This document shows, one piece after another, positions 6,324-55,083 of a stretch of 64,000 nucleotides of DNA. The position numbers and the translations under genes are program-made. The stretch lies in assembly GCA_964548075.1 (NCBI GenBank), contig CAZJQQ010000004.1:115872-179871 (forward strand), in the 5' to 3' direction. Below the pieces are notes generated by a model that was not told the origin of the DNA, made no database searches, and saw only the letters and a list, made by a program, of their open reading frames with translations. Positions within the stretch are counted from its first letter, which is position 1, and the number at the start of each line of letters is the position of its first letter. This DNA is from an uncultured Clostridia bacterium (GTDB taxonomy: Bacteria; Acidobacteriota; Blastocatellia; UBA7656).

Positions 6324-9300
6324 CTACTTGAGCTTCATACTTGGATCTCCCAGCAGAATCCACGTTCGCCTCACGTCGCCGTTTGTGACCGCGGCCTTCG
6401 AACGCGCCGTCGCCTCGCCTATCGTTATCGGAGTTCCATTGAAGATCATCCCGAACACTTGCTGATTCAGAATCGCTTGAATGTCTGGCGTGGTCATCCC
6501 CGACGATCCCCACACCGCAACGGCTCCCCCATTGGCTTTCAGCAAGCTTTCGGCGAGACTGTCCAGCGCCGCGTCCTGAAAGTAGCCGTTCAAGCACGTC
6601 ATCATCACAAACATCGACAACTCACCGGCGTTAGTCAGCCCGGCGGCGTCCGCCGAAGTCAGGATGTTGCCTCGCCATTGATCCACCGACCCGTGACCGG
6701 TGTAGTTGACGATGATCTGCCCGCGATTGATCGCGTCGATCAGTCTCGCTTTCGCGGTCGCATCGTCCAGGTGAGCTCGATCCACTGTCTCGACTCGGAT
6801 GTTGGGCGGAATGAAGCCTCTCAACAGATTGCTCGCACTCCCAAAGTCGTAAGTGTCGTTGTGATCGTTCACCAACAGCAACGTGCCGGCTGACGGCTGG
6901 CCGTCGTAGCTGGCGATCTTGGTGGCAAGGCGCAACGCTTCGGTTGCCGAACGCGCCGGCAAGCGGCCAATAGCCATGTCCGGCAAGCCGTCGCCGTTGA
7001 AATCAACCAACCAGTCGTCGGAAGCCGTCTCCATGTACTGCGTGTCAATCAGTTTGGTCGGCACCAGATCCGAGTCGCCGAACCCCAGATAGTTCTTCGG
7101 ATCGAAGCTCGCATCGCCGGCCAGCATCACGAAGCGCGGCGCTTTCTTCCAGGTGGTGGCGGCATACGCCAGGAAGTCTTTCACTGCTTGCGTCGTCTTC
7201 TGACCGTAGCTGAACTCGTCGTAGACATCCTCTATGTCCACGACCGCCACCGAATATCCCTGCTTCTGCCTTAATGACACCAGCGAGCCGAGCGATGCGA
7301 AGAACTCGCGGCGAGTGAGTATCACGAGGTTCGCACCGTTGCCGGGCTGGCGCCACGACGATGGGCTGTTGGGCGCAAGGCTGACGGGTTTCGACATATC
7401 GCCCGCAATCGCCAGCAGCGTGCGCGGCTCCGCGCTTTGAGGGTTGAGCGACACCGCGTAGCCGCCGCTCTTCTGCTGTTGCACGGTCCCGATCAGTTCC
7501 TGCACCGCAGCGGGATTGGTGATGTCGAGCACGCGAATGGCAGGGCTGCTGAAGCCGTCAACCGTGACCATCTGTTTCCCGGCGACGGTGAACCGCAGCG
7601 CGTTGCCTTCAGCCGTGTAGCGATGCGGGTACGTCAGCCGAATATAGTCAACGAGACTGATATCGCTCGGTCCCCCTCGCGAAGTGAGGCGCAAGACATT
7701 TTGTCCTTCCCTCAACTGCGGCGCCTGAACGTTGAATCGTCCGACGCCTTCCGACTGGCTGTTGAAGGAAATCGTGCCCGCGTACGAACCGTTCAACTCG
7801 ACCGTGACATTGTGCGCGGCGGTAGTGACGCCTTGGAGAGCTACTTCCAGCGTTGCACCGTCGCTCGATCCCGTTTCGACCCGCGACAGCGACAGCGATT
7901 GATCCACCGGGTCGCGCGCTATGACCGAACCAAAGAAGTTCTCCTTGTCGCCGTTGCGCAACCCGGAGAAGTAGATAGAGTGGTCACGGCGCTCAACCGC
8001 GTACGGGAAGGTGCCGCCGGTGGCATCCGGACCCGCAGCATTGTTCTGACCGATGCGCTTGCCCGGTTGATCGCCGGCCGTGAGCCAGTACGTGCGCAAG
8101 TTCGTGTAAGCCGAATCTACGCCGATCCCGTAGAACTCGATGGCCGAGAGCCGGCCGTCTTTTTCGGTGACAACGTTGATAGGTTGTTCCTGCCCGTCCA
8201 CTGAAAGCCGCAGCAGGCGCGGGTCAACGCGCGAATCGAGTCCGGCTGCTGCCAGCTCGGATTGTGAGACTTGATACCATCCCTCCCGCTGCACTGAGAT
8301 TTTGACGGCTGACTGACCGGCGATGATCGCCTGACTCGCCAGTCCCGCGATGGTCATCGGTATCTGCGTGGTTCTCGGCTCGAGCGGCGAGGTTGTGCCG
8401 TCCGCGTCCGCGCTGCCAGTGAGTTCGCCTATCAGCTTCGACTGTGGTTCGACGTCGGCGGACGATAACTTCTTGACGCCACCGGTAGTCCCGCGCACAG
8501 GCCCGTACCATATGCTGGAGCCGTCGAGATCGATCGACTCAAGCCAGTACATCGAGTCGGCATTGCTGCCCTGCGAGTCGCGCCACACGTAAGACCGGCC
8601 CGCGCCAAGCACAGTCCTGGCGCCGACAAAGAGCGCCGAGCCGGCGACGAAGTCGGGCGTCACTCGAACGCGTTTGCCGGCGTCTTCGCGGTAGATGTGG
8701 AAGCCGAGGTTGGCGACCTCGTATCCGGTTTGCCATCGTAGGAGCACGCCGCCATTCGGACTGTTTGGAGTCGCGGCATAGCCGTCGGCTGTGAACCAGT
8801 TCAGCGTGGCGTCGGTCGGCGCGGTGTCGTCGAAGCAAACTGTTACATCATTGACGGTTGGCGTTACCGTGCTGTCGGTCGTGGACAGGTAAGCCTTGTA
8901 CTTCAGATAGCGATTGCCGTTGAACTGAGTGAGCGAAGCGCCGCTGGTGGTAAAGAAGGTCGCGGCGGTGCCGTCGGGGCCAACAAAGTTGAATGGGCCT
9001 ACATCGCTGGTGCTGGCCGCCACCTGGAACTGGAGGGTGGTGTTTGCCGGGACGGTGGCATTCCACGACAGCGTGGGCCAGGTGGGAACCAACCCGACGG
9101 CCGGGTTCGCGTCCTTCAGTGAGGAGACGAACGTGCCTGAAGGCGTCGTCATGAAAGTCCTGAAGCCAGCATCGGTTACAACGCCGCCAGTCAGGGGAAC
9201 GGTCCAGACCGTACCGCTCGTAGCTCCGTTGACCCGGTCACCGCCCGCGTAGAGGCTGGCGCCGGTCGTGGAACTGCCGGTACGGGTGATCGCGTAGGTT

Positions 9301-12300
9301 CCTAGGGAGGGGTTCGCGGTCGGACGTATTGCCAACGCGTACTGCGTGCCCGCCGTCAGCGTCGCCGGGCTGGCGAAGTTTCCGGTGTAGAAGATCGCGG
9401 CGCCGCTGGAGAAGCCCGTGATCGTCGCGGACGCGAGGTCGGCTCCCGTGGGCAGGCCACCGCTGGTCGCCCTCACCGAGAGCGTGAGGTTGGGCGTTGT
9501 GCCCGTGCAACCGCTACAGAACAGGTTGATGTCGGCCCTTGTGAGCTGACCTGTGACGGTCGGCGTGAACGTCTGTCCACCCCAGGTCGTGATGGTGATG
9601 CCAAGCCCGAAACCACCGATGGCCTCGTTCAGTTGGTCAAGGTTCTGCTTCGAGAGGAGAATGTTGCCCGCGCTGGTCGTGAGGTCGCACTTCGCCGGAG
9701 TTCCCACGGAGAAGTCAGCCTGCGAGGTATCCGTCAGGCACCCCGTCACAGCCGCCGCGGTGAGCGCGAAGTTGTTCGTCGACGTCCCGCCGTCGGGAAC
9801 AACAACGGGCGTGGTCGTAGCGGAGTTATAGCCCAGAGCGCTGGCCGAGATGCTCGGATACGTCCCTGCCGGTATGTTCGTGAAGGAATAAGTGCCGTTG
9901 ACAGCCGTCGTCGTCATCCGGCTGCCGAACGCGACGCTCGCACCGCTGATCGGCGAGCCGCCCGGAGTCACGGTCACTGTACCGGACACGGTTCCGTTGC
10001 CGATTGCAGTACACGAGGGAAACTTGAAGGAGCCGATCCGCGTCAGGTCATTCAGCCCGTCCGTGGCGTAATACTCCTGCGTATACCAGAAGGTGCACCC
10101 ATCGGTCGGATCGAGGGTCATTGCACTGTAGTCACCCCAGCGGGTACAGGTGCCACCGCACGTGCCCACTTGCGTACCAGTGCCTTGAATGAGATCGACC
10201 TCCGTCTGCGGAAGCGAGCTAAGCGCATCGCCGAACAATCGTCCCGCGTAACGGATCGCGGGTTTCATCGTGCTGTTCGAGGCACTGTAGCCGATCATCA
10301 TATCGCCCGCGCGATCAACTGCTAGACTGGGCATGAAGCGGCTCACGGTGCTGTCGGGGCTATGCGTGGAGACCTGCGTCGGAGCTGCCGCGATGGTACC
10401 GCCCGTGACAACGGTCTGGTACCAGCGGACCCCGGCTTGTCCAGCTACGCTGCCCAGGACGGTGTGCGAGTCCCAGAGCGACTCAACGCCGCCGATGTTC
10501 GTGTACTGGTTCTGCATCATCGACCTGGTGGGGAGCGTGTCGAGATTGTTGCCGCCCAGGGAAGGCACGGTAGCCGGGGGACCCACCCAGCTCGTGCCTG
10601 CAATCGAGGTCGTGACCCCGGTGAACGTCGAGAGAAAGACATTGTTCCAATCGACGTGGAACTTCCAGATTGCCAACGCATTGGTATATGTGCCGGTTCC
10701 GACGAAGTAGTTCGGTGTCCCGGCCGGCGGCGTGCCGGACTGGAGTCGGGCGTTGCTGGGAATAATCGTGAAGACTGTGCCTCCATTCTGGTCCAGCCTT
10801 GGCGCGTCGAACGAAACAATCTGCGGGTTTGCCGCCCCGGCATACATCTGCGCCTTGTTGAACGCCCACTGTCGACTGAAGATGAACGATCCGCTGGTCG
10901 CGCCGAATCCGAACATGTTCGCGTTCATATATATGCCGTCAGGCCAGACGCCCAACTTCGGATAGTCGTTCAGCGCGTCTGGGACTTGGATCGAGTAGAA
11001 GTTCCACCCGCCCACGACCGGGTCGCCGGTCTTCGAGACCGCGAAGCATTGGAACGCACCGGGCGGGTTCACCACGTTGCCTCCGCTAAGCTGGAATGCG
11101 AAGTCCGTGATAATCCAGCGATCCTCAAAGGTGTCGTACAGAACCACGGGATCGCCAAAGTTGTCAGTGTCGCACAAGTTTCCAAAGCTGCCCTGGCTCA
11201 TGAACGTGTTGAAGGTGAAAGCCGCCAACTGAGTACCGGTTTTGTTGTAGATACCAATTGACGTGTTGACCGTCTCAATGTAGTGGTTTGGACCCACGTC
11301 GCCGTTTGTATCTGGCGGGTGGCCGGCGCCCCAGGTGTTGAAATCGAGGCCGTCGAAGTTCGCGATCGGTGAAGGGGCCGGAGCGGCCGGTGCAACTTTC
11401 GGCGCGGCAGGCTTAGACGGCGTTGGGGGTTTCGGTCCTATGAAGAGCGGCTCAAACTCCGGGGCTTCCTTCTCGGGCCGCTCCTTCTTGACCGGTGGAG
11501 TCCTTGGCAAATCTCTAAGGTCGCCATTGAATTCTTTCGCCTTCACCAGATGTAATTCTTTGGGCTTGAGGTTAATGGTTTGGACCGTTGCACTAACTGC
11601 TCGCTCCTGCGTGGGCCCGACCGAACTTCCGTCTTTGGTCGGCGCGGCTGCAATTGCTGAACCTGCGGCAGGAGCAGGATTGAGTTTTCCATTAGCGGTT
11701 TTGGGGGTTGTATCGCCGTTTTCAGCGCTCAAAGTTATCTCACCGCCGGTACCCTCCGCGGATGCGAGCTTCTCTGCCGGCAGATTTTCTGCATCAGCGC
11801 GCTCTGCGGTCGCTGAGACAGGAAGGCCTGTTTGCTCAACTGAACTTCTTTCCGATCGCCCTTGCTGCGCATCAAGTGAAGTCGCGGATGATTGTAATCC
11901 CGTATCAGCCGATTCAGATGACGCTTGCTTGCTGGTTGGGTCCGGCTTGCGGAGGATTGAGAATACCGGGTTCCTTCGCAGGGGCAAAGGCGGCGGCAGG
12001 GGCGAGATTCGGAAGACGCCCTGGCCTACTCCCGGTGAAATGGCCGTGTTCTGACGCTGCGCACGAGGTATTTGCGCGAAACCTTTGCGTTCTAGCTGCT
12101 GTAGCTTCGCGGTTCTTGCCAACTCGCGTATTCGCGAGCCGAGGAGTTTAGCCCGCGCCCGGCGTGCGGCGGCGGATTTCTGTGCGCCATTGCCAAGTAT
12201 GCGTTGAAATGCAGTGGCCGGGCGAGGGGGTCTTGCCTCCTTCGAGCTAAGGGGTCCCACAACTGCAGGCGCAACGGCTGATCTCTGCTCTGCGCCGCTT

Positions 12301-12509
12301 GCTGCCGGTGAAGTCGCGGCGTCTGGCTGGGCACCGGGCAGTTGAGAAGATCTTTTTATGAAGAGCAGGCTGATGCCTGTTGCTAAGATGACAAGGCATA
12401 GCGATACAAGGATCGCTCGCGAGACGTTATTCGTTCGACGACTTGGCTCAGCCGGCGCGCCGGTGACATTCGGTGTGTTCTTAATAGTCATTGGTGCTTT
12501 CTCCTTCAC
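6324..12509 (-). CDS. Giant membrane-anchored surface protein (2061 aa) with a carboxypeptidase-regulatory-like beta-sandwich and a C-terminal peptidase C25 domain
   Basis: N-terminus is nearly identical in pattern to its paralog (TIKNTPNVTGAPAEPSRRTNNVSRAILVSLCLVILATGISLLFIKRSS). Contains GTYSFTNIPAGTY (CarboxypepD_reg-like). C-terminal C25 motifs: VNYTGHGSVDQWRG and MFVMMTCLNGYFQD. Ends ...WILLGDPSMKLK, compared with ...WILFGDPAMRLK in the paralog. Confidence 0.8.
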   Translation of the reverse strand: MKEKAPMTIKNTPNVTGAPAEPSRRTNNVSRAILVSLCLVILATGISLLFIKRSSQLPGAQPDAATSPAASGAEQRSAVAPAVVGPLSSKEARPPRPATAFQRILGNGAQKSAAARRARAKLLGSRIRELARTAKLQQLERKGFAQIPRAQRQNTAISPGVGQGVFRISPLPPPLPLRRNPVFSILRKPDPTSKQASSESADTGLQSSATSLDAQQGRSERSSVEQTGLPVSATAERADAENLPAEKLASAEGTGGEITLSAENGDTTPKTANGKLNPAPAAGSAIAAAPTKDGSSVGPTQERAVSATVQTINLKPKELHLVKAKEFNGDLRDLPRTPPVKKERPEKEAPEFEPLFIGPKPPTPSKPAAPKVAPAAPAPSPIANFDGLDFNTWGAGHPPDTNGDVGPNHYIETVNTSIGIYNKTGTQLAAFTFNTFMSQGSFGNLCDTDNFGDPVVLYDTFEDRWIITDFAFQLSGGNVVNPPGAFQCFAVSKTGDPVVGGWNFYSIQVPDALNDYPKLGVWPDGIYMNANMFGFGATSGSFIFSRQWAFNKAQMYAGAANPQIVSFDAPRLDQNGGTVFTIIPSNARLQSGTPPAGTPNYFVGTGTYTNALAIWKFHVDWNNVFLSTFTGVTTSIAGTSWVGPPATVPSLGGNNLDTLPTRSMMQNQYTNIGGVESLWDSHTVLGSVAGQAGVRWYQTVVTGGTIAAAPTQVSTHSPDSTVSRFMPSLAVDRAGDMMIGYSASNSTMKPAIRYAGRLFGDALSSLPQTEVDLIQGTGTQVGTCGGTCTRWGDYSAMTLDPTDGCTFWYTQEYYATDGLNDLTRIGSFKFPSCTAIGNGTVSGTVTVTPGGSPISGASVAFGSRMTTTAVNGTYSFTNIPAGTYPSISASALGYNSATTTPVVVPDGGTSTNNFALTAAAVTGCLTDTSQADFSVGTPAKCDLTTSAGNILLSKQNLDQLNEAIGGFGLGITITTWGGQTFTPTVTGQLTRADINLFCSGCTGTTPNLTLSVRATSGGLPTGADLASATITGFSSGAAIFYTGNFASPATLTAGTQYALAIRPTANPSLGTYAITRTGSSTTGASLYAGGDRVNGATSGTVWTVPLTGGVVTDAGFRTFMTTPSGTFVSSLKDANPAVGLVPTWPTLSWNATVPANTTLQFQVAASTSDVGPFNFVGPDGTAATFFTTSGASLTQFNGNRYLKYKAYLSTTDSTVTPTVNDVTVCFDDTAPTDATLNWFTADGYAATPNSPNGGVLLRWQTGYEVANLGFHIYREDAGKRVRVTPDFVAGSALFVGARTVLGAGRSYVWRDSQGSNADSMYWLESIDLDGSSIWYGPVRGTTGGVKKLSSADVEPQSKLIGELTGSADADGTTSPLEPRTTQIPMTIAGLASQAIIAGQSAVKISVQREGWYQVSQSELAAAGLDSRVDPRLLRLSVDGQEQPINVVTEKDGRLSAIEFYGIGVDSAYTNLRTYWLTAGDQPGKRIGQNNAAGPDATGGTFPYAVERRDHSIYFSGLRNGDKENFFGSVIARDPVDQSLSLSRVETGSSDGATLEVALQGVTTAAHNVTVELNGSYAGTISFNSQSEGVGRFNVQAPQLREGQNVLRLTSRGGPSDISLVDYIRLTYPHRYTAEGNALRFTVAGKQMVTVDGFSSPAIRVLDITNPAAVQELIGTVQQQKSGGYAVSLNPQSAEPRTLLAIAGDMSKPVSLAPNSPSSWRQPGNGANLVILTRREFFASLGSLVSLRQKQGYSVAVVDIEDVYDEFSYGQKTTQAVKDFLAYAATTWKKAPRFVMLAGDASFDPKNYLGFGDSDLVPTKLIDTQYMETASDDWLVDFNGDGLPDMAIGRLPARSATEALRLATKIASYDGQPSAGTLLLVNDHNDTYDFGSASNLLRGFIPPNIRVETVDRAHLDDATAKARLIDAINRGQIIVNYTGHGSVDQWRGNILTSADAAGLTNAGELSMFVMMTCLNGYFQDAALDSLAESLLKANGGAVAVWGSSGMTTPDIQAILNQQVFGMIFNGTPITIGEATARSKAAVTNGDVRRTWILLGDPSMKLK

Positions 12510-31608: not shown

Positions 31609-34600
31609 ATGTCACCGCGTTTCAGAATCGCATTGTGCACCCTGTTAGCCTTGCTTCAGTCTCTCGGACTCTTTACTGCGCAAATCGCAACAGGTCAGAC
31701 AAGACGGGTCTCAACGGCGCGCGCGCAGGGAGGCGATGTGAAAACCGGATTGCAGCTCCGATTGAGTGAGGGAACCGCCGTCGTCCTTAATCAGCCGGTC
31801 GCTTCGACTGCGCCCGCTGCGCGGCTTTCCGAGGACGACGCGCAAAATGTTTTGAAGCGGCTTCAGCCTCTTAAAGCAGAGCTGAGCGACGAACAGGACA
31901 TTGCGTTGCGCGATCGCTCGCTGCCTCCGCCGCGCGCGGGTAAGACCATCACCGATTCGTTCCCGCCTGCGGCAAAACTCGATGCGCCGGATAAGCTAGC
32001 AATGGGTCCGCTCGAGGTGCTGCGCTATTCGCCGGAAGGCGACGTGCCGCTGGTTCCTCAACTCAGCGTGACTTTCTCTCAGCCAATGGTGGCGGTCACT
32101 TCGCATCAAGACACGCTCGCCGCAGGAGTGCCGGTCAAGCTCACGCCGCAGCCTCCGGGACACTGGCGATGGGTAGGCACGAAGACCCTGCTGTTTGAAA
32201 CCGAAGGCCATTTCCCAATGGCGACCGAGTACACGGCGGAAATCCCCGCCGGCGTGAAATCGGCCACGGGAGCCATTCTCGCGGCGACGAAGAGTTGGAA
32301 GTTCACGACCCCGCCGCCCGTGGTGAAGTCGTCGTATCCAAATGACGGCCCAACCGTGCGTGACCCGCTGATGTTCGTCGAGTTCGATCAAAGGGTGAGT
32401 CCTGCTTCCGTGGTTGGGACGATTCGCGTGCGATCAGGCAATCGCGAATGGAAAACACGTCTCGCCACGAGCGCGGAAGTCGCCGCCGACGATGCCGTGA
32501 GCAAGCTCGCCGCTCGGGCTACCAAAGATCGCTGGCTCGCGTTCCGCGTTGTCGATCCCGCTAACGAAACGTCGCGAGCGCCGCTGCCTGCCGGCTCATC
32601 CATCAACGTGTCGATCGGGCCGGGCACACCGTCGCTTGAAGGCCCGCGACGAACGGCGGCGCCGCAGAGTTTTGCTTTTCGCACGTACGGACCTTTGCAC
32701 GTGACGCAGCATCGGTGTGGCTATCGTGAACAGTGCTCCCCGTTTGACCAGTGGACCGTCCAGTTCACAAATCCGATTGACGCCTCGGCATTTGAGCAGT
32801 CTCAAGTGCGAGTCGAAGAGATCAGCGCCGCCGGTAAGAAGCCGCAAACCGTCAGCCTCAAGAGCGCGATCTACGGCAACACGCTCAGCATCAGCGGAAT
32901 CAAGCCGGGCCGCACGAGTTATCGAGTGACGCTCGATCCGGCGATGCGCGACCAGTTCGGACAAGCGCTCGGCGAAACCACACCGATCGTCTTCAACGTA
33001 GGTTCGGCGCCGGCCGCTCTCGCGGGACCGGACAAGCAGTTCGTCGTCCTGGACCCCGCGGCACCACCGCGATTCTCGGTCTACAGCATCAATCACAACA
33101 GTCTGAGAGTGCGCCTCTACTCGGTAGGCCCCGAGCATTGGAGCCAGTTCCTCGCGTACATGCGCAACCGCGACGACCGAACACCGCGAACGCCACCGGG
33201 CCGGCTGGCTCTTTCAAAAGACGTTAACGTCGCCGCCAAACCCGATGAGATGGCTGAGACTCGCATTGATCTCACCCCCGTGCTCGACGCAGGCGTCGGG
33301 CAGGTATTCGTCGTCGTCGAGCCGGCTGTTCCAACCGCCAGGCGTTATCGCGATTCGGTCGCCGTGTGGGCGCAGGTCACTCAGATCGGCCTCGATGCCT
33401 TCGTTGATAGCTCGGAGTTGATAGGCTGGGCCACGTCGCTCAAAGATGGCGGGCCGATAGACGGCGCGCGACTGTCGATCGAAGTAGCGCACGCTGCCAG
33501 CTTGCGAACTGACGCTGCGGCTACAACACGCACCGACGGCACCGCCAACCTGGCTCTGAAAGACACCGCCAGTGAAGGCGCGCGCATTCTCGTCGCTCGC
33601 AAGGGCCGCGACGTAGCAATTCTTCCCGAGACCGCCTACTGGAACGATCGCAGCGGCTGGGTCAGGAGAGATCGGGGCGATTCGCTGCGGTGGTTTGTCT
33701 TCGACGATCGCAAGATGTATCGCCCCGGCGAAGAAGTTCACGTCAAGGGATGGATTCGCCGCGTGGGCGACGCTAAAGGCGGCGACGTGAATCCGCTCGA
33801 CGCCGGCGCGGCCAAAGTCGAATACGTCGTAAAAGACTCGCGCGGCAACGACGTCCTGAAAGGCGAAGCAAGAATCAACGCTCTCGGCGGATTCGACACC
33901 GCGTTCAAGCTGCCGGCAACGATGAACCTCGGCTACGCCCAGTTGCACCTTGAAGCGTTCGCCAACTTGCCCTCCTCAAACCGCGAGTATTCGCACCGGT
34001 TTCAAGTTCAGGAATTTCGCCGACCCGAGTTCGAAGTCACCTCGCAAGCCTCTGAAGGCCCACACTTCGTCGGCAGCAGCGCAACTACGACGGTAAACGC
34101 CGCTTACTACGCGGGCGGCGGACTCAGCAATGCCGAGGTGACCTGGCGAGTGACCACATCCACGGCTCGCTTCACGCCACCCAATCGCGATGATTTCACT
34201 TTCGGAAAGTGGATTCCGTGGTGGATCGATCGAAGCTCTTACACAGAGAGAAAAGTCGAAACGTTCAACGGCCGAACCGACGCGGCGGGCAAGCACACAC
34301 TGCGCATGGATTTCACTTCGGTTGATCCGCCTCAGCCATCAACGGTCACTGCCGAAGCCAGCGTGACGGATGTGAACCGTCAGGCTTGGACTGCATCGGC
34401 GAATCTGCTCGTCCATCCGGCGGATCTCTACGTCGGCATGCGCAGTCCTCGCACGTTCGTGCAAAAAGGCGAGCCGCTCATCGTGCAGTCGATCGTCGCC
34501 GATCTCGATGGAAAACTGATCGCCGGACGAGAGATAAAGATCCGAGCCGTTTTGATGGATTGGGTCTTTGAAAAAGGCGAGTGGAAGCAGCAAGAGACTA

Positions 34601-37600
34601 ACCCGCAGGAATGCACGGTGAGGTCGGCTGCCGATCCGGTTCAATGCCGCTTCGAAACTAAAGAAGGCGGGCAGTATCGTGTGACCGCGACGATACAGGA
34701 CGACCGCGAACGCAAGAACGAAAGCGAGCTGACGCTGTGGGTCGCCGGCGGAAAGGTCGTACCGAAGCGAGACATCGAGCAGGAAGACGCTCAGATGATT
34801 CCCGATCGCAAGGAATACCGAGCGGGTGACACAGCAGAGATCCTTGTGCAAGCGCCGTTCTATCCGGCGGAAGGGGTGTTGACGCTGCGGCGTTCAGGCA
34901 TCGTGAGCACCGAGCGATTTGCGATGGACGGCCCGTCGCACACGTTGCGCATTCCGATCGAGGAAGGCTACACGCCGAACCTTCACGTGCAGGTTGATCT
35001 CGTGGGCGCGGCAATGCGCACCGACAACGAGGGCAAGCCTGCCGAGAAACTGCCTAAGCGTCCCGCGTTCGCAAAGGGAGAATTGAATCTGCAGATACCG
35101 CCGCTTGCGCGAGAGCTTGCGGTCGAGGCGAAGCCTCGCGACAAGACTCTCGAGCCGGGCGGCGAGACGACGGTTGACGTTGAAGTGCGAGACGCAGCAG
35201 GCAAGCCCGTCGCCGGAAGCGAGCTCGCGGTTGTTGTCGTTGATGAAGCGGTGCTTGCCTTGACCGGCTATCGCATCGGCGATCCGATCTCGACGTTCTA
35301 CGCTCAGCGCCGCCCCGAGGTGACCGATCACCATTCACGCGATGATGTTCTGCTTGCGGCCCCCGAAGACCTAGCGGAGAAGCTGCAACGGACGGGTTTC
35401 AACACGGGCGGCGGGGAGCCAAGGCTTGGTGGTGACGCCGCGGCACCTATGAGGGCGATGGCACCGCCAAAAAACGGGCGAGAGTTCCAAAAGGCTGAGC
35501 TTTTAGCGGAGTTGCAGCAAGACCAAATTCGTATGCGCCAAAACTTCGACGCGCTTGCAACATTCGCGCCTGTCGTGCCGACCGATGCTAACGGGCGCGC
35601 GAGCGTCAAAGTAAAACTCCCCGACAGTCTGACTCGCTATCGAGTGATGGCTATCGCGGTCGCCGGCGGCAAGCAGTTCGGCGCGAATGAATCAAACATA
35701 ACCGCCCGCCTCCCGTTGATGGTGCGTCCCTCCGCGCCGCGATTCCTTAACTTCGGCGACACTTTCGAGCTGCCCATCGTCGTGCAAAACCAAACGGACT
35801 CGCCGATGGATGTCGATGTCGCAGTCCGAGCCGGCAACGCCGAACTGACAGCAGGCGCCGGCCGCCGCGTGACTGTCCCGGCCAACGATCGAGTCGAAGT
35901 GCGTTTTCCAGTCTCAGCCTCGCGAGCGGGGTCTGCGCGGTTTCAAATCGCGGGCGTGTCGGGCAAGTGGGCCGACGCCGCCGAAATCGAATTGCCCGTG
36001 TGGACTCCGGCGACGACCGAAGCGTTTGCGACTTACGGCGAGATCGACGAAGGCGCGATCGCGCAACCGGTCAAAGCGCCGAGCGATGCGATCAGACAAT
36101 TCGGCGGACTCGAAATCTCGACATCATCAACCGAGCTTCAAGCACTGACCGACGGCGTGATCTATCTCGTAGCTTATCCGTTCGAGTGCTCGGAGCAACT
36201 GTCATCGAGAGTGCTGGCCGTCGCAGCGTTGAAAGACGTGCTTGCGGCTTTCAAGGCAAAGGGGCTGCCTGAGCCGAAAGAGATGATCGAGGCCGTCGCC
36301 CGGGACATCAAGCGGTTGGAGTCGCGTCAAAGCGACGACGGCGGCTTTGGGTTCTGGCGGCGAGGCGATCAGGCGTGGCCTTACGTGAGTATCCATGTGG
36401 CCCACGCGCTTCAGCGAGCGAAGGATAAAGGCTTCGAGGTTCCGGCTTCGATGCTCGACCGCTCAAAGAAGTACCTGCGCGAGATCGAGCGGCACATACC
36501 CAATCATTACGGTCCGTATGCCCGCCGCGCGCTTGTCGCCTATTCGCTCTACGTGCGAAACCTGATGGGCGACAAGGACTCAGCGAAGGCTCGGCGTTTG
36601 ATTGCCGAAGCGGGGCTCGAAGGCGTGTCGCTTGAAGCAATCGGCTGGCTGCTGTCGGTGCTGTCGGGCGATCCGGCTTCGCAGACTGACCTTGCCGCCA
36701 TCCGCAAACATCTTAACAACCGAGCCACGGAAGAGGCTGCCACAGCCCATTTCGTGACTTCGTACAAAGACGACGATTATCTGCTGATGCACTCGGATCG
36801 CCGCGCCGATGGGGTCATCCTCGAAGCTTTGATCAAAGACCAGCCGGCCAGCGACTTGATTCCCAAGGTCGTGCGCGGCCTGCTCGCGCATCGCAAACAA
36901 GGCAGATGGGAGAACACGCAGGAGAACGCTTTCGTGCTGCTCGCGCTTGATAAGTACTTTTCGACTTATGAAAAGGTCACACCGGACTTCGTCGCGCGCG
37001 CGTGGCTCGGGGAAGCTTACGCGGGCGGACACGAGTTCCGCGGGCGCACGACCGAGCGTCACAACGTAAATGTCCCGATGCGGGCGCTTGCTGAAACTGC
37101 GGCGTCGCAGAATCTAATCCTGAGCAAGGAGGGCCCGGGCCGGTTGTACTATCGCGTTGGTATGCAATACGCACCCGCGAGCCTCAAGCTCGATCCTTCA
37201 GAGCACGGCTTCACAGTCGAGCGCGTGTACGAAGCAGTTGACAAGGCTGACGACGTGCGTCGCGACCCGGACGGAAGCTGGCACATCAAAGCCGGCGCGC
37301 GTGTGCGAGTGAAGCTGACTATGCTCGTCGCGACGCGCCGATATCACGTCGCGCTGGTTGATCCGATACCGGCGGGGCTTGAAGCGTTGAACCCGGCGCT
37401 CGCGGTCACGGGCAGCGTCCCGCAAGACCCGAACGACAAGACGACTGATCGCTGGTGGTGGTGGCGACGGCCATGGTTCGAGCACCAGAACATGCGTGAC
37501 GAACGCGTCGAAGCGTTTGCGTCTTTGGTGTGGGAAGGCGTTCACACCTACTCCTACGTAGCTCGCGCGACGACTCCGGGAGTGTTCGTCGTCCCGCCAA

Positions 37601-37671
37601 CGAAAGCCGAAGAGATGTACCACCCCGAGACCTTCGGCCGCAGCGGAACTGATAGGGTGATTGTTGAGTGA
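31609..37671 (+). CDS. Bacterial alpha-2-macroglobulin family protein (2020 aa)
   Basis: Signal peptide followed by large MG-like beta-sandwich arrays. Thioester motif in YPFECSEQLSSRVLAV (C-x-E-Q). Confidence 0.8.
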   Translation: MSPRFRIALCTLLALLQSLGLFTAQIATGQTRRVSTARAQGGDVKTGLQLRLSEGTAVVLNQPVASTAPAARLSEDDAQNVLKRLQPLKAELSDEQDIALRDRSLPPPRAGKTITDSFPPAAKLDAPDKLAMGPLEVLRYSPEGDVPLVPQLSVTFSQPMVAVTSHQDTLAAGVPVKLTPQPPGHWRWVGTKTLLFETEGHFPMATEYTAEIPAGVKSATGAILAATKSWKFTTPPPVVKSSYPNDGPTVRDPLMFVEFDQRVSPASVVGTIRVRSGNREWKTRLATSAEVAADDAVSKLAARATKDRWLAFRVVDPANETSRAPLPAGSSINVSIGPGTPSLEGPRRTAAPQSFAFRTYGPLHVTQHRCGYREQCSPFDQWTVQFTNPIDASAFEQSQVRVEEISAAGKKPQTVSLKSAIYGNTLSISGIKPGRTSYRVTLDPAMRDQFGQALGETTPIVFNVGSAPAALAGPDKQFVVLDPAAPPRFSVYSINHNSLRVRLYSVGPEHWSQFLAYMRNRDDRTPRTPPGRLALSKDVNVAAKPDEMAETRIDLTPVLDAGVGQVFVVVEPAVPTARRYRDSVAVWAQVTQIGLDAFVDSSELIGWATSLKDGGPIDGARLSIEVAHAASLRTDAAATTRTDGTANLALKDTASEGARILVARKGRDVAILPETAYWNDRSGWVRRDRGDSLRWFVFDDRKMYRPGEEVHVKGWIRRVGDAKGGDVNPLDAGAAKVEYVVKDSRGNDVLKGEARINALGGFDTAFKLPATMNLGYAQLHLEAFANLPSSNREYSHRFQVQEFRRPEFEVTSQASEGPHFVGSSATTTVNAAYYAGGGLSNAEVTWRVTTSTARFTPPNRDDFTFGKWIPWWIDRSSYTERKVETFNGRTDAAGKHTLRMDFTSVDPPQPSTVTAEASVTDVNRQAWTASANLLVHPADLYVGMRSPRTFVQKGEPLIVQSIVADLDGKLIAGREIKIRAVLMDWVFEKGEWKQQETNPQECTVRSAADPVQCRFETKEGGQYRVTATIQDDRERKNESELTLWVAGGKVVPKRDIEQEDAQMIPDRKEYRAGDTAEILVQAPFYPAEGVLTLRRSGIVSTERFAMDGPSHTLRIPIEEGYTPNLHVQVDLVGAAMRTDNEGKPAEKLPKRPAFAKGELNLQIPPLARELAVEAKPRDKTLEPGGETTVDVEVRDAAGKPVAGSELAVVVVDEAVLALTGYRIGDPISTFYAQRRPEVTDHHSRDDVLLAAPEDLAEKLQRTGFNTGGGEPRLGGDAAAPMRAMAPPKNGREFQKAELLAELQQDQIRMRQNFDALATFAPVVPTDANGRASVKVKLPDSLTRYRVMAIAVAGGKQFGANESNITARLPLMVRPSAPRFLNFGDTFELPIVVQNQTDSPMDVDVAVRAGNAELTAGAGRRVTVPANDRVEVRFPVSASRAGSARFQIAGVSGKWADAAEIELPVWTPATTEAFATYGEIDEGAIAQPVKAPSDAIRQFGGLEISTSSTELQALTDGVIYLVAYPFECSEQLSSRVLAVAALKDVLAAFKAKGLPEPKEMIEAVARDIKRLESRQSDDGGFGFWRRGDQAWPYVSIHVAHALQRAKDKGFEVPASMLDRSKKYLREIERHIPNHYGPYARRALVAYSLYVRNLMGDKDSAKARRLIAEAGLEGVSLEAIGWLLSVLSGDPASQTDLAAIRKHLNNRATEEAATAHFVTSYKDDDYLLMHSDRRADGVILEALIKDQPASDLIPKVVRGLLAHRKQGRWENTQENAFVLLALDKYFSTYEKVTPDFVARAWLGEAYAGGHEFRGRTTERHNVNVPMRALAETAASQNLILSKEGPGRLYYRVGMQYAPASLKLDPSEHGFTVERVYEAVDKADDVRRDPDGSWHIKAGARVRVKLTMLVATRRYHVALVDPIPAGLEALNPALAVTGSVPQDPNDKTTDRWWWWRRPWFEHQNMRDERVEAFASLVWEGVHTYSYVARATTPGVFVVPPTKAEEMYHPETFGRSGTDRVIVE

Positions 37672-37804: not shown

Positions 37805-38872
37805 ATGCCTGTGAGTTCTGCACCCGGATCTGGCCGTCAGCGGGATGTCGACGAGATCGTTATGTATGAAAGAGCGGCTGAAGTTGGTCGCCTTCTCTTA
37901 GGTGACCTTAAAGGACCTATGCAGTGGATCTATTACGACCAGTATCTCGGCAAGCCCAGAAAAGAGTTGCAAGCTCGAAAGCATTCGATACGCGCTTACC
38001 TTGGAACTGAGATAGGAAAGTTCTGCCGGAGGAATTTCGAGGATGTGAAGCCCAGGGATCTCGCCCGCTTATATGAGCCGCTTTACGCGCGCGGTAGTGT
38101 CTGGCGGCTTCCTCTGAGCGACTTCATTGAAGAGCTTGGGGTGCCCAAGGAAGGCGTACTCAGAGGAGCGCCGCTTCATGCAACCGTCTCTATCTCGTAT
38201 CTATGGGGGTTACAAACAGAATACCCAGAAATGCACCTAGTTAGAGACCTGGCGCTTTCGCTCAATGCGGTTGTCGCTGCCGAAAGGGAGTTGGAGGAAT
38301 ATGAGCGAATCCCGAAGAGTGAGGCCAAACTCAAGCAGGCCGAACTCGCCGCGCTACAGGGTCACAGTGCTTTCAACAAAAGGATGTGCATTCTCTCCTG
38401 CTTCAACTTGGTAGAGGCCTACGTAAATGGGCTAGCTTGGGAATATGTTCACACCCATGACATCTCACTTGTCTCAAAGGGTGACCAAGAGGCACTCACG
38501 GAAAAAGACAAGAACGGCAAAGATAGACTCGTAAACATAATCGATAAACTCGTAAAGATTCCGAGAATCGTAGCTCACCAGCAATATGGTCCGTTAGACA
38601 AGATGCGCGAGCCCCTGAAAACCTTCATCGAAACTGTTAAGCCATACCGCGACTCTATCGTTCATGCATCTCCATTTTCTGCTCCAGAGAACTTTGGTGA
38701 TTATGACAAACTCTCAAAATTGTATGAGCTCAGTTTGGATACCGTTAAAAAGGCGGTGAGCAATACACTGGCTATCATTAGTCAGATTCACCAATTCACT
38801 GGAGCAAACAACAATCTGCCGGAATGGGTTTACGCTCAGAACGACGACGGGTCATTTGACATGGCGTCTTAA
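37805..38872 (+). CDS. Hypothetical protein on a low-GC islet; possible HEPN-like nuclease domain (R-x4-H motif RDSIVH)
   Basis: About 50% GC against about 62% in the flanks. C-terminal helical region ...MCILSCFNLVEAYVNGLAWEYVH...YRDSIVHASPF. Alternative start ATG at 37919 has a better SD (AAGGA). No confident family assignment. Confidence 0.5.
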   Translation: MPVSSAPGSGRQRDVDEIVMYERAAEVGRLLLGDLKGPMQWIYYDQYLGKPRKELQARKHSIRAYLGTEIGKFCRRNFEDVKPRDLARLYEPLYARGSVWRLPLSDFIEELGVPKEGVLRGAPLHATVSISYLWGLQTEYPEMHLVRDLALSLNAVVAAERELEEYERIPKSEAKLKQAELAALQGHSAFNKRMCILSCFNLVEAYVNGLAWEYVHTHDISLVSKGDQEALTEKDKNGKDRLVNIIDKLVKIPRIVAHQQYGPLDKMREPLKTFIETVKPYRDSIVHASPFSAPENFGDYDKLSKLYELSLDTVKKAVSNTLAIISQIHQFTGANNNLPEWVYAQNDDGSFDMAS

Positions 38873-50403: not shown

Positions 50404-50464
50404 ACGAACACGAGCTTTTTCGCTGGCTTCCCGATAACCGGGCAGGTATGCTCTCGCAAACGAG

Positions 50465-51655
50465 ATGATCACTAAGCTCATTGTCGAATCGTTCAAGTCG
50501 TTAGAGTCGGTCACGGTTGAACTCGGACAGGTTAACGTTTTCATCGGGGCCAACGGGAGCGGTAAGAGCAACCTGCTGGAAGCCCTTGGTGTTCTCGGGG
50601 CGGCAGCTTCTGGACGGGTCGACGACGAGTCGCTGCGAAGGCGTGGCGTTCGCCCCGGCGTGCCACAGCTCTACAAGTCAGCGTTTCCGCGCCGAAAGGG
50701 AGAAAAAGAAACCCCTCATATTCTCTTTGAAGCCAGGCAAAACGGTGCTAGATACAGGGTGTCGCTGTGCAATCCGATCAATGACCCAAATCCAGCCTGG
50801 CAGTTCGAGACTGAGCTACTGGAACGCGAGCCGGGTGACAAGATTGTCGAGCGATCTCCCGGAGATGCGCATCTGAATCCGGACCAGGGGTTTGCCGCTC
50901 TGAAGGTGGTTGAATTAAGCAACGGCGATCCGGCGCTAAGTCTATTCGACGATCTACGTGGCTACCGCATCTATTGCGCAAACACTCCTACGCTTCGCGG
51001 GGCGCCAGATCTGCAATCGCGCGAACCGCTGGGTCTCTCCGGTGGTCGACTGCCCGATGCTATCAGAGAAATCAGGGGGGCGCGGTCGGGCAACAAACGT
51101 CTGAGAGATGCCTTTCAGCAAGTGATTTCATTGATTGACTGGGCGAAGAACGTTGAGTCAGCGGCATCAGCCTCCGTTCCTCTCTCACCATCTGCAACGG
51201 CGTCAAAGCGGGTTGTTCAATTCACTGATCGCTTCATGGCGGAGAAACGAAATGTTCTGACCGGCTACGACGCGAGCGAGGGCGCGCTTTATATCCTTTT
51301 CGCTGCGGTTCTTGCTCTTCATCCAACGGCTCCGAGGTGTTTCGCTATCGACAACCTTGATCAAGCGTTGAATCCTAAGCTCTCAATGCGGCTTGCGGAG
51401 GCTCTTTGCAGATGGCTTCTTGATTCCGGCGAGTCGCGGCAGGTCCTTCTTACCGTACACAACCCTACAGCGCTCGATGGACTCCCTTTGACGGATGACC
51501 GTGTGCGGTTGTTCACTGTGGACCGCGACAATCGAGGTCACACGGTCGTGCGCAGGGTGGAGCTGACACTGAAGTTATTGGCGAAGGCGGCTGAGGGATG
51601 GACGCTATCACGTCTCTGGGTAAACGGCTTGATTGGTGGTGTTCCGAATGTCTGA
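50465..51655 (+). CDS. ABC-type/SMC-like AAA ATPase (AAA_15/AAA_21-like), candidate OLD-family or PARIS AriA-like ATPase
   Basis: Walker A VFIGANGSGKSNLLEAL. Q-loop and signature-like ASEGALYIL. Walker B/D-loop CFAIDNLDQALNP. H-loop LTVHNP. About 55% GC, lower than the flanks. Confidence 0.8.
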   Translation: MITKLIVESFKSLESVTVELGQVNVFIGANGSGKSNLLEALGVLGAAASGRVDDESLRRRGVRPGVPQLYKSAFPRRKGEKETPHILFEARQNGARYRVSLCNPINDPNPAWQFETELLEREPGDKIVERSPGDAHLNPDQGFAALKVVELSNGDPALSLFDDLRGYRIYCANTPTLRGAPDLQSREPLGLSGGRLPDAIREIRGARSGNKRLRDAFQQVISLIDWAKNVESAASASVPLSPSATASKRVVQFTDRFMAEKRNVLTGYDASEGALYILFAAVLALHPTAPRCFAIDNLDQALNPKLSMRLAEALCRWLLDSGESRQVLLTVHNPTALDGLPLTDDRVRLFTVDRDNRGHTVVRRVELTLKLLAKAAEGWTLSRLWVNGLIGGVPNV

Positions 51656-52376
51656 GCCTTTGAGACTAGCTCTCGTCGTTGAAGGACCAACCGACAAGGT
51701 GGTCATTGAAGCGGCGATTTCGTCCATGCTTGATGCCCGACCGTTCGTTCTTAACCAATTGCAGCCAGAGGCGTCACTAGCATTCGGCGTAAGTGTCGGA
51801 TTCGGTCCACATGGCGGAGGATGGGGAGGCGTTTACCGATGGTGTCGACAGGCAGCCGACCGCAGTGGAGGCTCCTTAGACGCTGATCCTTTGTTCGAGG
51901 GCCACGATGTTCTAATACTCCACCTCGATGCCGATGTTGCTGGCGAGAGGTATCGGAGCGCGAATATCCACGAGGACCGCGGGGATTTGCCATGCGCAGA
52001 ACCCTGTCCTCCAGCACAAGCGACCACTGATCGGCTAAGAGAAGTGCTTTTGCGATGGGTCGGCGAGCAAACGACCCCGGACCGTACGGTGCTCTGCACT
52101 CCTTCGAAGAGCACTGATGCTTGGGTTGTAGCCGCCCTCTTTCCAACCGATCCGGCGGTGCTCGACGGCAACCATGAATGTCGCTCACACGGACAACAGC
52201 CGCTGCGCATCAGGATTGACAAGAGTCAGTCCGAGTACGAGAACCACGGAGCGACGCTGAGTGAGGCTTGGCTGACCGTAACGGAAATCTGCACTGAAGC
52301 ACGGCGATTCAGCGATGACTTTCGCAGGGCCGTTCAAACGGTGGATGAAATAGCCGATGTCACAGACAGTTCCTAG
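51648..52376 (+). CDS. TOPRIM-like (DUF4276/DUF4435-like) protein, candidate nuclease partner of the upstream ATPase
   Basis: Overlaps the ATPase gene by 8 nt. N-terminal LALVVEGPTDKVVIEAAI supplies the conserved Glu. VLILHLDADVAGE supplies DxD. This is the OLD-type Toprim pattern. Confidence 0.55.
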   Translation: MSEPLRLALVVEGPTDKVVIEAAISSMLDARPFVLNQLQPEASLAFGVSVGFGPHGGGWGGVYRWCRQAADRSGGSLDADPLFEGHDVLILHLDADVAGERYRSANIHEDRGDLPCAEPCPPAQATTDRLREVLLRWVGEQTTPDRTVLCTPSKSTDAWVVAALFPTDPAVLDGNHECRSHGQQPLRIRIDKSQSEYENHGATLSEAWLTVTEICTEARRFSDDFRRAVQTVDEIADVTDSS

Positions 52377-52415
52377 TTGAGTCGTCCATTGCCGTTTGAC
52401 TAGAAACTGACCGTG

Positions 52416-53486
52416 TCACTTATTGAACCCGTGGTCTGCGAGCCTTATCAGTTCGTCAATCGAAGCCTCTGTGAATCCTCGCGAGCGCATTTTCTTAATG
52501 AACGCCGGTGTGACTCCGTGATCCCGCATCCGAACCAGTTGTTCGATCGGCAGATTCTGAAGCCCAACTTCCTTGAGTCCGTTGATGAACTCTCCGTTGA
52601 CTCCGTGGTCTCGCATTCTTACCAACTGCTCCAAAGGAGGACGACCGTAGCCGAGCGCCTCGACTTCTTTGATGAAGTTCGCGTTTACTCCGTGATCCAC
52701 TGTTCTGGTCAGTTGCTCGAGCGATAGCCCCGTATAGCCCGCGGCGCGAATCTCGTTGATGAAGCGCGGATTCACTCCGTGATCGACCGTTCTGATAAGC
52801 GTCTCGACCGGAAGGTCCTTGAAGCCCAAACCGTCCAGCTCTTTGATCACAGACGGATTCACACCGTGGTCCACCATCCGAGTCAACAGGTCGACGGACT
52901 GAACGGTGTAGCCCAGAGCCTTCAGCTCTCTCACGTATTCGAGCGTGACGCCGTGCTGACCCATTCGCACCAGTTGATCGACGGAAGGGCGCTCGTAACC
53001 TTGAGCGTTCAACTCGTCGATGAAAGCCAGGCTAACATCGTGCATCGCAAGCGAGAACTGCTGAGCTTCGGTGGGCGCCGCGTAGCCTCGCTTCTGAAGT
53101 TCCGAGGCATAGGCAGGACTCGCTGAAAAAACGAAGTGGCCCGAGCCCTTGCCGTCTTTGAACCAGCCTTCGCAGTTGAACGTGCCCGCATCGCGAACGA
53201 GCTGAAACTGAACCTGCAAGCCTGCCGACATGATTTGCGCGCCGGTCAGACCTTGCAGCCGGTCGGGCTCGATGCGAAACGAGGTCATACTGTTGCCGCG
53301 GCCCATCGTGTCTGAACGATAGTTGAGCGTGAGTTGATACTGATTCGTGCCGCGCTTGGTGTCGATTATCCATTGACCCGAGCGCGAGTCTTGCGCGCTA
53401 GTCCGAAATGCGAAGACGGCGGCTAGAACGGCGCACAAGCCGGAAACTATCAGAGCGTTCCTCCAGGACCGATTTAGGTTCGTCAT
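52416..53486 (-). CDS. Secreted protein with N-terminal beta-rich domain and 7 tandem ~29-aa repeats (consensus ..D/EQLVRMxDHGVxxxFIxELxxLGY)
   Basis: Start MTNLNRSWRNALIVSGLCAVLAAVFAF with AAAGGAGAT SD. Repeats include SVDQLVRMGQHGVTLEYVRELKALGY, PLEQLVRMRDHGVNGEFINGLKEVGL and PIEQLVRMRDHGVTPAFIKKMRSRGF. Paralog of 53646..54731. Confidence 0.6.
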   Translation of the reverse strand: MTNLNRSWRNALIVSGLCAVLAAVFAFRTSAQDSRSGQWIIDTKRGTNQYQLTLNYRSDTMGRGNSMTSFRIEPDRLQGLTGAQIMSAGLQVQFQLVRDAGTFNCEGWFKDGKGSGHFVFSASPAYASELQKRGYAAPTEAQQFSLAMHDVSLAFIDELNAQGYERPSVDQLVRMGQHGVTLEYVRELKALGYTVQSVDLLTRMVDHGVNPSVIKELDGLGFKDLPVETLIRTVDHGVNPRFINEIRAAGYTGLSLEQLTRTVDHGVNANFIKEVEALGYGRPPLEQLVRMRDHGVNGEFINGLKEVGLQNLPIEQLVRMRDHGVTPAFIKKMRSRGFTEASIDELIRLADHGFNK

Positions 53487-53645
53487 AACAAATCTCCTTT
53501 TGCAGCTTCGTTGGCGGCTTTGCGAGTCTTTGCGATCTTTGCGCGAAACGCACCTTGAGGAGTCGTTTCGCGCAAAGACGCTAAGATCCGCAAAGAACGC
53601 CAGGCAAAGAGTGCCAAGCAAACAGGGCAAGCGGGCGGCGAGCCG

Positions 53646-54731
53646 CTACTTGTCGAAACCGTGAATCTTCAGCTCGATCAGTTGGTCTATCGAAGCGTCA
53701 TTGAACCCGCGCGATTTCATCTTTTGAATGAATGCCGAACTCACGCCGTGAATTCGCATCGCTACAATCTGATCGGTCGATACTCGATCGAAGCCCAGCG
53801 TCTTGATCTCCTTGACGAACTCGGTGCTGACCCCGTGGATTCGCATCGCAACCAATTGATCGATCGGGATTCGTTCGTAGCCAAGCTCGCGCAGCTCTTT
53901 GATGAATTCGTTCTTCACGCCGTGAATCCGCATCGCCACCAGTTGATCGATCGGCGGCTGGCGGTAGCCCTGCTCCTGCAAGTCTTTCACGAACTCGGTG
54001 CTCACCCCGTGAATTCGCATCGCTACAAGCTGGTCGAGTGGCGGGTGTTCGTAGCCGAGCGATTTGAGTTCTCCGATGAACTCCGGTTTGACGCCGTGAA
54101 TACGCATCGCGACCAGGTTATCGACGGGCACCTGATCGTAGCCCTCGTCTTTTATCGCCTTGATGAATTGCGGACCGGCGCCGTGAATGCGCATCGCAAA
54201 GAGATTATCGGTCGTCAGATGATCGTACCCGAGCGCATTGAGCTCGCGTATGAAGGTGAGGCCGATGTCGTGCACCGCCATCGAGAACAACTTCTCGTCG
54301 GAGAGTTGTTCGTATCCCAGACCTTTCATCTCAGCGGCGAACCTTTGATTGGGCACAAAGGTGAAACTCCCGGAGCCCTTGCCCTCTTTGAACCATCCTT
54401 CGCAGTTCAACGTGCCGGCTTCTCGCATGACTTGAAAGCTGACGGCTGAACCGCTGCCCGAAGCTTGAGCGGCACTCAGTCCTTTCAGGCTGTCCGCCCG
54501 AATGTCCGAAGACGACGAGTGGGTGCCGCCTCTCTCACTCCGGCGATGAATCGAGAAATAGACGAAGTCCGTGCCGGGCTTCATCTCGATGATCCATTCC
54601 CCGGTCATCGAACCTTGAGCCGGCGTTCGCGACGCGGAAATGCTCGAAACGGACGCGTAACAGAGCAGCGACGCAAGAACGGCCACCGCCGCTGTCAGCA
54701 TGTACTTAGACAGACCAGTCCTGGTGTTCAT
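53646..54731 (-). CDS. Secreted tandem-repeat protein, paralog of 52416..53486
   Basis: Start MNTRTGLSKYMLTAAVAVLASLLCYASV with AAGGAGA SD. Shared N-domain ...NCEGWFKEGKGSG.F.F.... Six repeats: PVDNLVAMRIHGVKPEFIGELKSLGY, PLDQLVAMRIHGVSTEFVKDLQEQGY, PIDQLVAMRIHGVKNEFIKELRELGY, .... Confidence 0.6.
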   Translation of the reverse strand: MNTRTGLSKYMLTAAVAVLASLLCYASVSSISASRTPAQGSMTGEWIIEMKPGTDFVYFSIHRRSERGGTHSSSSDIRADSLKGLSAAQASGSGSAVSFQVMREAGTLNCEGWFKEGKGSGSFTFVPNQRFAAEMKGLGYEQLSDEKLFSMAVHDIGLTFIRELNALGYDHLTTDNLFAMRIHGAGPQFIKAIKDEGYDQVPVDNLVAMRIHGVKPEFIGELKSLGYEHPPLDQLVAMRIHGVSTEFVKDLQEQGYRQPPIDQLVAMRIHGVKNEFIKELRELGYERIPIDQLVAMRIHGVSTEFVKEIKTLGFDRVSTDQIVAMRIHGVSSAFIQKMKSRGFNDASIDQLIELKIHGFDK

Positions 54732-55083
54732 CGTGTCTCCTTGAGCGCACACCTTTCCCGTTGCAGCGCGCAATCGAGGGCGCTGGGTTGATTTGACGCC
54801 CTTTCCGCGTCAAGTCCGTTCTTCTTCGCGGGATTAGCTTTTACTGGTCTCAGGTGAATGACGCCTGCGATGCAATGGTTTCAAGTTTATGTCGATTCGG
54901 GGACGAACCTGAAACCTAGGCGGCCGGCCGCCTCATTGGGGTCGCTCTCTCCTGAACTCTTTTCTCTCCCGGCCTGGGCCGGAGGAACAGCTAGCGTTAC
55001 CGTTCAAGGCTTTCCTTTGACTCTAACACTGCGGTTCGTGTAGGAATGTGGGCGTCCGCAACAGAGACTTCAAAGGACGTGAG

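Follow-up and report, generated by a model that had tools for sequence, protein, structure and literature searches.

The window analysed here is a 64,000-nucleotide (nt) stretch of contig CAZJQQ010000004.1 (positions 115,872 to 179,871, forward strand) of the uncultured bacterial assembly GCA_964548075.1, and the subject of the analysis is a pair of overlapping genes, A and B, which encode a predicted ATP-binding cassette (ABC) ATPase and a predicted Toprim nuclease. The pair had been proposed from the sequence alone as a candidate anti-phage system of the PARIS/OLD family lying in a small defence islet (hereafter the original prediction). The two open reading frames (ORFs) and their 8-nt overlap were both confirmed, and the layout of the locus is as follows.

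50465..51655, + strand: gene A, ATG start, 396 amino acids (aa); compact SMC/Rad50-type ABC ATPase, PADLOC PDC-M31A
51648..52376, + strand: gene B, 242 aa from ATG; stand-alone OLD/DUF4276-like Toprim nuclease (predicted), PADLOC PDC-M31B
51648..51655, + strand: overlap of A and B, ATGTCTGA, 8 nt, with the start codon of gene B within the end of gene A
50404..50464, no strand: left boundary of the optional segment, a 61-nt spacer from the mfd stop to the start of gene A
52377..52415, no strand: right boundary of the optional segment, a 39-nt spacer from the gene B stop to the stop of a convergent gene (52416..53630)

The mechanical ORF of gene B begins at an upstream TTG at 51633, five codons before the ATG, and is 247 aa long. 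The overlap, as read from the sequence, implies translational coupling of the two genes, and the same alignment geometry was found at the A/B junction in 66 of 80 homologous loci. The mfd gene lies upstream of gene A on the same strand, and two convergent paralogous repeat-protein genes lie downstream of gene B, so that the flanks are of the kind originally described, with mfd on one side and secreted-type genes on the other.

Judged by profile matches, the pair belongs to PDC-M31, a candidate system of PADLOC, because each of the two proteins is matched along its whole length by the corresponding model. Gene A matches PDC-M31A with an E-value of 4.4e-158 (residues 1-396 against positions 1-395 of 395) and gene B matches PDC-M31B with an E-value of 1.4e-73 (residues 1-229 against positions 1-230 of 233); two more PDC-M31B models also match gene B, and A stands immediately 5′ of B on the same strand, as the system has it. 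The PADLOC run that had been suggested as a check on the prediction thus returned both components. The models of other defence ATPases match gene A far more weakly (HEC-01A 2.5e-26, AriA 5e-18, mad3 6e-18, NsnB 3e-13), and none of the AriB, mad4, AbiLii and GajA-Toprim models matches gene B. The PDC systems are a set of 145 “guilt-by-embedding” candidates, described by their authors as untested, whose models derive from genes that lie within BREX, DISARM or type I restriction-modification (R-M) loci; PDC-M31 corresponds there to cassette CAS_00126, FAM_00005>>FAM_00304, with 102 RefSeq instances (Payne et al. 2024, bioRxiv 10.1101/2024.01.29.577857). No defining difference was seen between PDC-M31 and the window pair, which is a solitary, acidobacterial copy at a hotspot downstream of mfd.

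Gene A has Pfam matches to AAA_21 (2e-17, full length), SMC_N and AAA_15, and in sequence comparison with solved structures the P-loop region was the only part that matched. Walker A, the signature, the Walker B Asp, the H-loop and the ABC fold were all found, which places it among the ABC ATPases of the SMC/Rad50/RecF clade, the one used by Septu, retrons, PARIS and Gabija. Conservation was counted over 73 family members drawn from genomic loci, and the main motifs are these.

50546..50572, + strand: Walker A/P-loop GANGSGKSN, residues 28-36, with G28, N30, G31, G33, K34 and N36 invariant in the 73 homologues
51338..51376, + strand: Walker B strand CFAID (residues 292-296, a DSSP strand), followed by N297-L-D299-Q-A-L-N-P, with Asn at the position of the catalytic Glu
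51452..51466, + strand: H-loop TVHNP, residues 330-334, preceded by a strand at 326-331; H332 in 68 of 73

The signature S-E-G, Walker A (GxNGSGKSN) and the H-loop His are conserved across these homologues. In ABC ATPases the catalytic Glu directly follows the Walker B Asp. Here D296 is kept in 67 of the 73 members (Glu in the others) and D299 in 70, and the residue after D296 is Asn in 71 and Glu in only two. The segment IDNLD, first taken for a D-loop, is therefore to be read as a degenerate Walker B, being a strand at 292-296 that ends in D296 and is followed by Asn. A comparable “EN” instead of “DE” is found at Walker B in Menshen NsnB, which belongs to a validated system (PMC12065111), and hydrolysis by AriA relies on its Walker B Glu E393 (PMC11464382).

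Gene B gave no match in Pfam, NCBIfam or PHROGs; its family profile found nothing among the PDB sequences, and a Foldseek search against the PDB, reported alongside these searches, gave no significant match. Its AlphaFold2 model is confident (pLDDT 86.5, pTM 0.87) and shows strands of a parallel sheet at residues 5-10, 33-39, 88-92 and 147-150. The best structural matches of the model are OLD-family Toprim domains, with the C-terminal region of BpOLD at the top. Conservation was counted over 94 divergent relatives and centres on three segments.

51672..51698, + strand: Toprim Glu motif VVEGPTDKV (E12, G13, T15, D16), directly after strand 1; E12 and G13 in 94/94, D16 in 93/94
51921..51947, + strand: Toprim DxD motif HLDADVAGE (D94, D96), directly after strand 3; D94 in 94/94, D96 in 92/94
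52095..52127, + strand: C150-T-P-S-K-S-T-D157-A-W159-V, following strand 4; contains E/D157, probably an acidic ligand of the second metal, and the invariant W159

In the third segment C150 is found in 85, P152 in 93 and W159 in all 94 relatives, with Glu at position 157 in 74 and Asp in 13; K192 is kept in 90. The metal site of BpOLD is formed by E400/E404, D455/D457 and T506/E508, with K562 as catalytic Lys (PMC6755086), and E12/D16, D94xD96, E/D157 and K192 of gene B come in the same order as E400/E404, D455/D457, E508 and K562, an equivalence drawn by motif order alone. The placing of an OLD-type Toprim Glu and DxD in this protein is thus borne out, with the Glu after strand 1, the DxD after strand 3 and OLD-like structural matches. 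All the motifs first quoted, GANGSGKSN, AIDNLDQ and TVHNP in gene A and VVEGPTDKV and HLDADVAGE in gene B, are present and conserved well beyond chance in the 73 and 94 homologues. Of the proposed likeness to DUF4276 and DUF4435, the latter fell away, as no DUF4435 match was found in gene B or its relatives, and the former is only distant: nine of the 94 relatives match Pfam DUF4276 (PF14103) weakly, with a best E-value of 8.5e-5, and the window protein not at all. DUF4276 is itself placed in the Toprim superfamily in the literature, and two of the 94 match OLD-like_TOPRIM.

Five cysteines of gene B (C66, C116, C120, C150 and C178; window 51843-52181) are each conserved in 76-89 of the 94 relatives, with all five in 60, and they include an LPCxxPCPP loop between strands 3 and 4. 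From this pattern the set could be a metal or redox site, and no equivalent of it was found in the literature on OLD, AriB and DUF4276 proteins. One search put the family at 814 clusters (90% identity), another at 1,037 representatives (50% identity, E<=1e-3). Of the 150 best representatives, those of full length consist of this protein alone and measure about 220-260 aa, except for a few of 300-370 aa.

A relative of gene B was found in 191 of about 185,600 species-representative genomes, and the 80 loci kept belong to Acidobacteriota, Verrucomicrobiota, Planctomycetota, Elusimicrobia, Proteobacteria, Cyanobacteria, Spirochaetes and others. In 80/80 of them B is immediately preceded by a homologue of A. 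The neighbours are otherwise unrelated from locus to locus, except for type I hsdM, hsdS and hsdR, which stand in the same orientation beside the pair in at least 13 of the 80 loci, at least seven of them arranged as hsdM-hsdS-[A-B]-hsdR. The type I R-M setting by which PDC-M31 was defined is thus met with again in these loci. Among 72,556 plasmids there was a single match, the conjugative Enterobacter hormaechei plasmid pE5_001 (NZ_CP042572.1, 104163-106071), where the pair is flanked by traI/dsbA on one side and by a CBASS-like operon (SAVED, E1-like, JAB) on the other and an integrase is close by; the 8-nt overlap and the D-N Walker B are both retained there. The plasmid B protein has lost one cysteine and the acidic residue at position 157, and this pair is an experimentally tractable representative. 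Phage records gave only one weak match. One verrucomicrobial locus (L049, 282-4418) carries two diverged tandem pairs, A-B-A-B, with 51% identity between the two A copies and 42% between the two B copies; the D-N Walker B is present in both A copies.

The site after mfd was followed through the lineage of the window. The pair follows mfd in the window and in L004 (mfd 92% identical), L081/L082, L083 and L091. A scan with the mfd C-terminus detected empty sites in relatives that are 92-95% identical in this part of the protein (L085, L087, L089 and L090); there the same convergent gene comes next downstream, and its stop lies 25-165 nt beyond that of mfd. Other relatives hold different cargo at the junction, namely an MNT-HEPN pair (L096), an FRG-domain protein (PADLOC PDC-S15) with further genes that have no assignment and an MNT (L097), or a GYD protein (L092), and in some the downstream genes are absent altogether. 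Because close relatives have an empty site or other cargo, the A-B pair is optional cargo at a variable site and not housekeeping. Conservation of the pair in a housekeeping context had been named as a finding that would speak against the original prediction, and the pair is missing from this junction in relatives; the idea of a small non-housekeeping islet held in so far as an accessory insert was found. In L004, a syntenic Blastocatellia metagenome-assembled genome, tblastn recovers mfd and both PDC-M31 genes in pieces that lie in different frames (5021-10634). Pseudogenisation of the pair was considered there and rejected, as the mfd match on the same contig also switches frame, which suggests assembly indels. 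For L081 (GCA_038040445.1, JBBPIG010000006.1) the NCBI gene list has no B gene at 7191-8023, and the identical Logan region L082 has a 247-aa gene; the gene B family may be under-annotated in public records.

The composition of the window pair was also compared with its surroundings. Its total GC of 0.565, against a window mean of 0.585 (standard deviation (sd) 0.024), is at the 17th percentile and unremarkable, whereas the third-position GC (GC3) of A and B (0.58 and 0.56) lies about 2 sd below that of 37 window ORFs (0.688, sd 0.053). The lower GC first noted for the pair is accordingly weak as total GC and clearer as GC3. No direct, inverted, att-like or target-duplication repeats were found bracketing the 2-kb segment, and no integrase was found near the pair. 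A promoter and terminator scan had no promoter-like or terminator-like match within the spacer 50404..50464; its sole terminator-like match around the pair is inside gene A, and the count was below shuffle expectation, which makes the scan uninformative.

The pair is best read as a two-gene accessory module that has spread horizontally, and it is on balance probable, in our analysis, that this module is an ATPase-regulated Toprim nuclease acting in defence in the manner of PARIS, OLD or HEC-01. This is supported by the embedding in R-M loci, the adjacency to a CBASS-like operon, the strict pairing of A and B, the optional site and the atypical GC3. Several points weigh against it. The association with R-M is found in only about 16% of the loci, and among the annotated ORFs of the window there is no further defence gene, so that the pair is solitary. 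The replacement of the canonical catalytic Glu by Asn in 71 of 73 A proteins, and likewise in the Enterobacter plasmid copy, makes the ATP-driven steps uncertain, and about seven of the 94 gene B relatives have no acidic residue at position 157. No experimental report on any PDC-M31 member and no mention of PDC-M31 in the literature searched were found. HEC-01, the most similar tested candidate, gave no protection in Payne et al. 2024 (10.1101/2024.01.29.577857); a HEC-01 instance protected E. coli B in another study.

As hsdM, hsdS and hsdR are the sole recurrent neighbours and the pair can stand between hsdS and hsdR, it may also be read as an accessory of type I R-M, that is, an rloA/rloB- or PrrC-like back-up or restriction modulator. 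The literature offers parallels, since PrrC is described as almost exclusively embedded in type I R-M (10.1101/2024.01.29.577857) and RloB-type Toprim proteins are linked to it. We hold this to be unlikely: 67 of the 80 loci have no R-M gene in the stored flanks (up to 10 kb), a figure of 40 out of 47 where each flank reaches 5 kb or more, the copies downstream of mfd in the clade of the window are without R-M, and the plasmid copy stands beside a CBASS-like operon with no R-M. On this view the solitary copy in the window would need R-M genes at another place in the genome. A selfish addiction module of toxin-antitoxin (TA) type, with the nuclease as toxin, the ATPase as regulator, post-segregational killing as its mode of maintenance and phage defence as an incidental effect, would fit the compact, overlapping and patchily distributed genes, the MNT-HEPN pair of TA type that occupies the same hotspot in a relative, and the name “putative AbiEii toxin” that Pfam gives to AAA_21. 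That label is however a generic domain name, neither protein matches a known TA family, the pair is nearly absent from plasmids (1/72,556), and the R-M embedding and CBASS-like adjacency point to immunity, by which this explanation becomes quite doubtful.

The pair starts 61 nt 3′ of mfd and is read from the same strand, no terminator-like site lies between them, and five further relatives show the mfd adjacency as well. This brings up a third explanation, a DNA-repair module linked to Mfd and resembling RecF (an ABC ATPase) and RecR (a Toprim protein with a Cys4 zinc finger), which would handle stalled transcription or replication intermediates. The NCBIfam recF model does match the N-terminus of gene A (E 1.6e-11), and gene B has conserved cysteines. 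The empty sites after mfd in closer relatives contradict such a role, neither an equivalog match to RecF and RecR nor a near-universal distribution was seen, and the explanation, which was rejected once the empty sites had been found, is very improbable.

Under the preferred defence reading, the coupled overlap would lead to joint production of A and B, which would assemble into a complex, in which ATPase A may act as an ATP-gated sensor or regulator that holds nuclease B inactive. Because its catalytic Glu is replaced by Asn, A would probably operate through the binding of ATP and the engagement of its heads, with hydrolysis slow or slight. B would then be activated or released by a cue from infection; since the pair often lies inside type I R-M operons, this cue is perhaps an anti-restriction protein or foreign DNA. 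B would cut nucleic acid (DNA, or tRNA/RNA) by two-metal catalysis and so halt the replication of a phage or mobile element.

Among the named systems, HEC-01, an Hma-embedded candidate that pairs an ABC ATPase with a TOPRIM protein, has the same two-gene architecture; HEC-01A belongs to the same Payne family (FAM_00005) as gene A and matches it near full length, and its Toprim partner has an OLD-like metal site, as gene B probably does. The pair is nevertheless not a HEC-01 system, for the match to HEC-01A is far weaker than that to PDC-M31A, and HEC-01B is of a different family from gene B (E 0.009, over about 40 residues only).

PARIS, a validated ATPase and Toprim system (PMC11464382), also carries the two functions on separate genes of one operon. 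Its AriB is however a DUF4435 protein, and gene B matches no DUF4435 or AriB model; AriA is about 53-55 kDa with insertions IS1 and IS2, the latter of which lengthens the coiled coil and enables the hexamer (Burman et al., PMC11464382), whereas gene A has 396 aa and Asn in place of E393, and is not of AriA type. The membership in PARIS or OLD class 4 that was first proposed therefore does not hold, as the AriB and DUF4435 models fail on gene B and its relatives and AriA is not the closest ATPase. OLD class 1/2 and GajA share with the pair the ATPase clade and, by motif order, probably the Toprim two-metal active-site layout, but they have ATPase and Toprim fused in one protein where the window pair is split, and gene B differs from them by a family-specific insert with conserved cysteines. 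Class 2/Gabija further needs a UvrD-like helicase. The expected lack of a GajB-like partner was confirmed, the sole helicase-like neighbour being the full-length housekeeping mfd, which relatives have also without the pair, and the GajA model covers only residues 1-89; with ATPase and Toprim on two proteins and no GajB, the pair is not Gabija.

MAD3-MAD4 of MADS combine an AAA_15/21 ABC ATPase with a DUF4276-class Toprim, an arrangement like that of the window pair, and a DUF4276-type Toprim also forms C-terminal domains of Menshen NsnC; PADLOC mad3 matches gene A along its length, and NsnB shares with it the Asn after the Walker B acid. Gene B, by contrast, has no DUF4276 or mad4 match, NCBIfam MADS3 reaches 44 bits against a cutoff of 420, and no methyltransferase or other MADS/Menshen gene was found near the window pair, so the relation to MADS and DUF4276 is distant and short of membership. 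A more speculative view, which we consider improbable, is that PDC-M31 represents a fifth OLD-like immunity lineage, in which the ATPase, impaired in hydrolysis by nature through its D-N Walker B, would be a pure ATP-binding latch and the Toprim partner would carry a five-cysteine metal or redox site, and which may sense type I restriction inhibition like PARIS through unrelated surfaces.

The combination of an ABC ATPase with a Toprim nuclease is among the most widely reused designs of bacterial immunity (OLD, Gabija, PARIS, retron effectors), and PDC-M31 forms a fairly large branch of it, with about 1,000 clusters at 50% identity drawn from many phyla. What is seen here is a catalogued candidate family within a familiar architecture, of which only the degenerate Walker B, the cysteine set and the hotspot downstream of mfd are not routine, and the pair is a plausible but fairly ordinary defence module. 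For the genome of the window the gain is modest, as two hypothetical genes and a variable cargo site after mfd in Blastocatellia-like Acidobacteriota are annotated. If defence by PDC-M31 were shown, a further “guilt-by-embedding” prediction would be validated, and the natural Glu-less ATPase variant would be useful for separating ATP binding from hydrolysis in such sensors.

Some further genes of the window were recorded. The convergent paralogues downstream of the pair (52416-53630 and 53646-54773, - strand) have N-terminal hydrophobic segments and are probably secreted; they are made of repeats of about 35 aa, “LV.MR.HGV...FI..L...GY”, with essentially no Pfam match. In L081 and L083 the repeat-protein genes adjoin a Peptidase_M56 (BlaR1-like)/Penicillinase_R (BlaI-like) pair, which is absent from the window between the repeat-protein genes and the amidohydrolase gene. 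A 355-aa ORF at 37805-38872 (+ strand), in which both GC (0.496) and GC3 (0.538) reach the minimum of the window, has no Pfam match and probably represents a further foreign gene. The genes at 1053-5957 and 6324-12509 (- strand) encode very large proteins, of 1,634 and 2,061 aa, both of which end in Peptidase_C25 domains. At 31609-37671 (+ strand) a bacterial alpha-2-macroglobulin of 2,020 aa is encoded, and in L028 and L029 genes of this kind are the direct upstream neighbours of the PDC-M31 pair, probably by coincidence.

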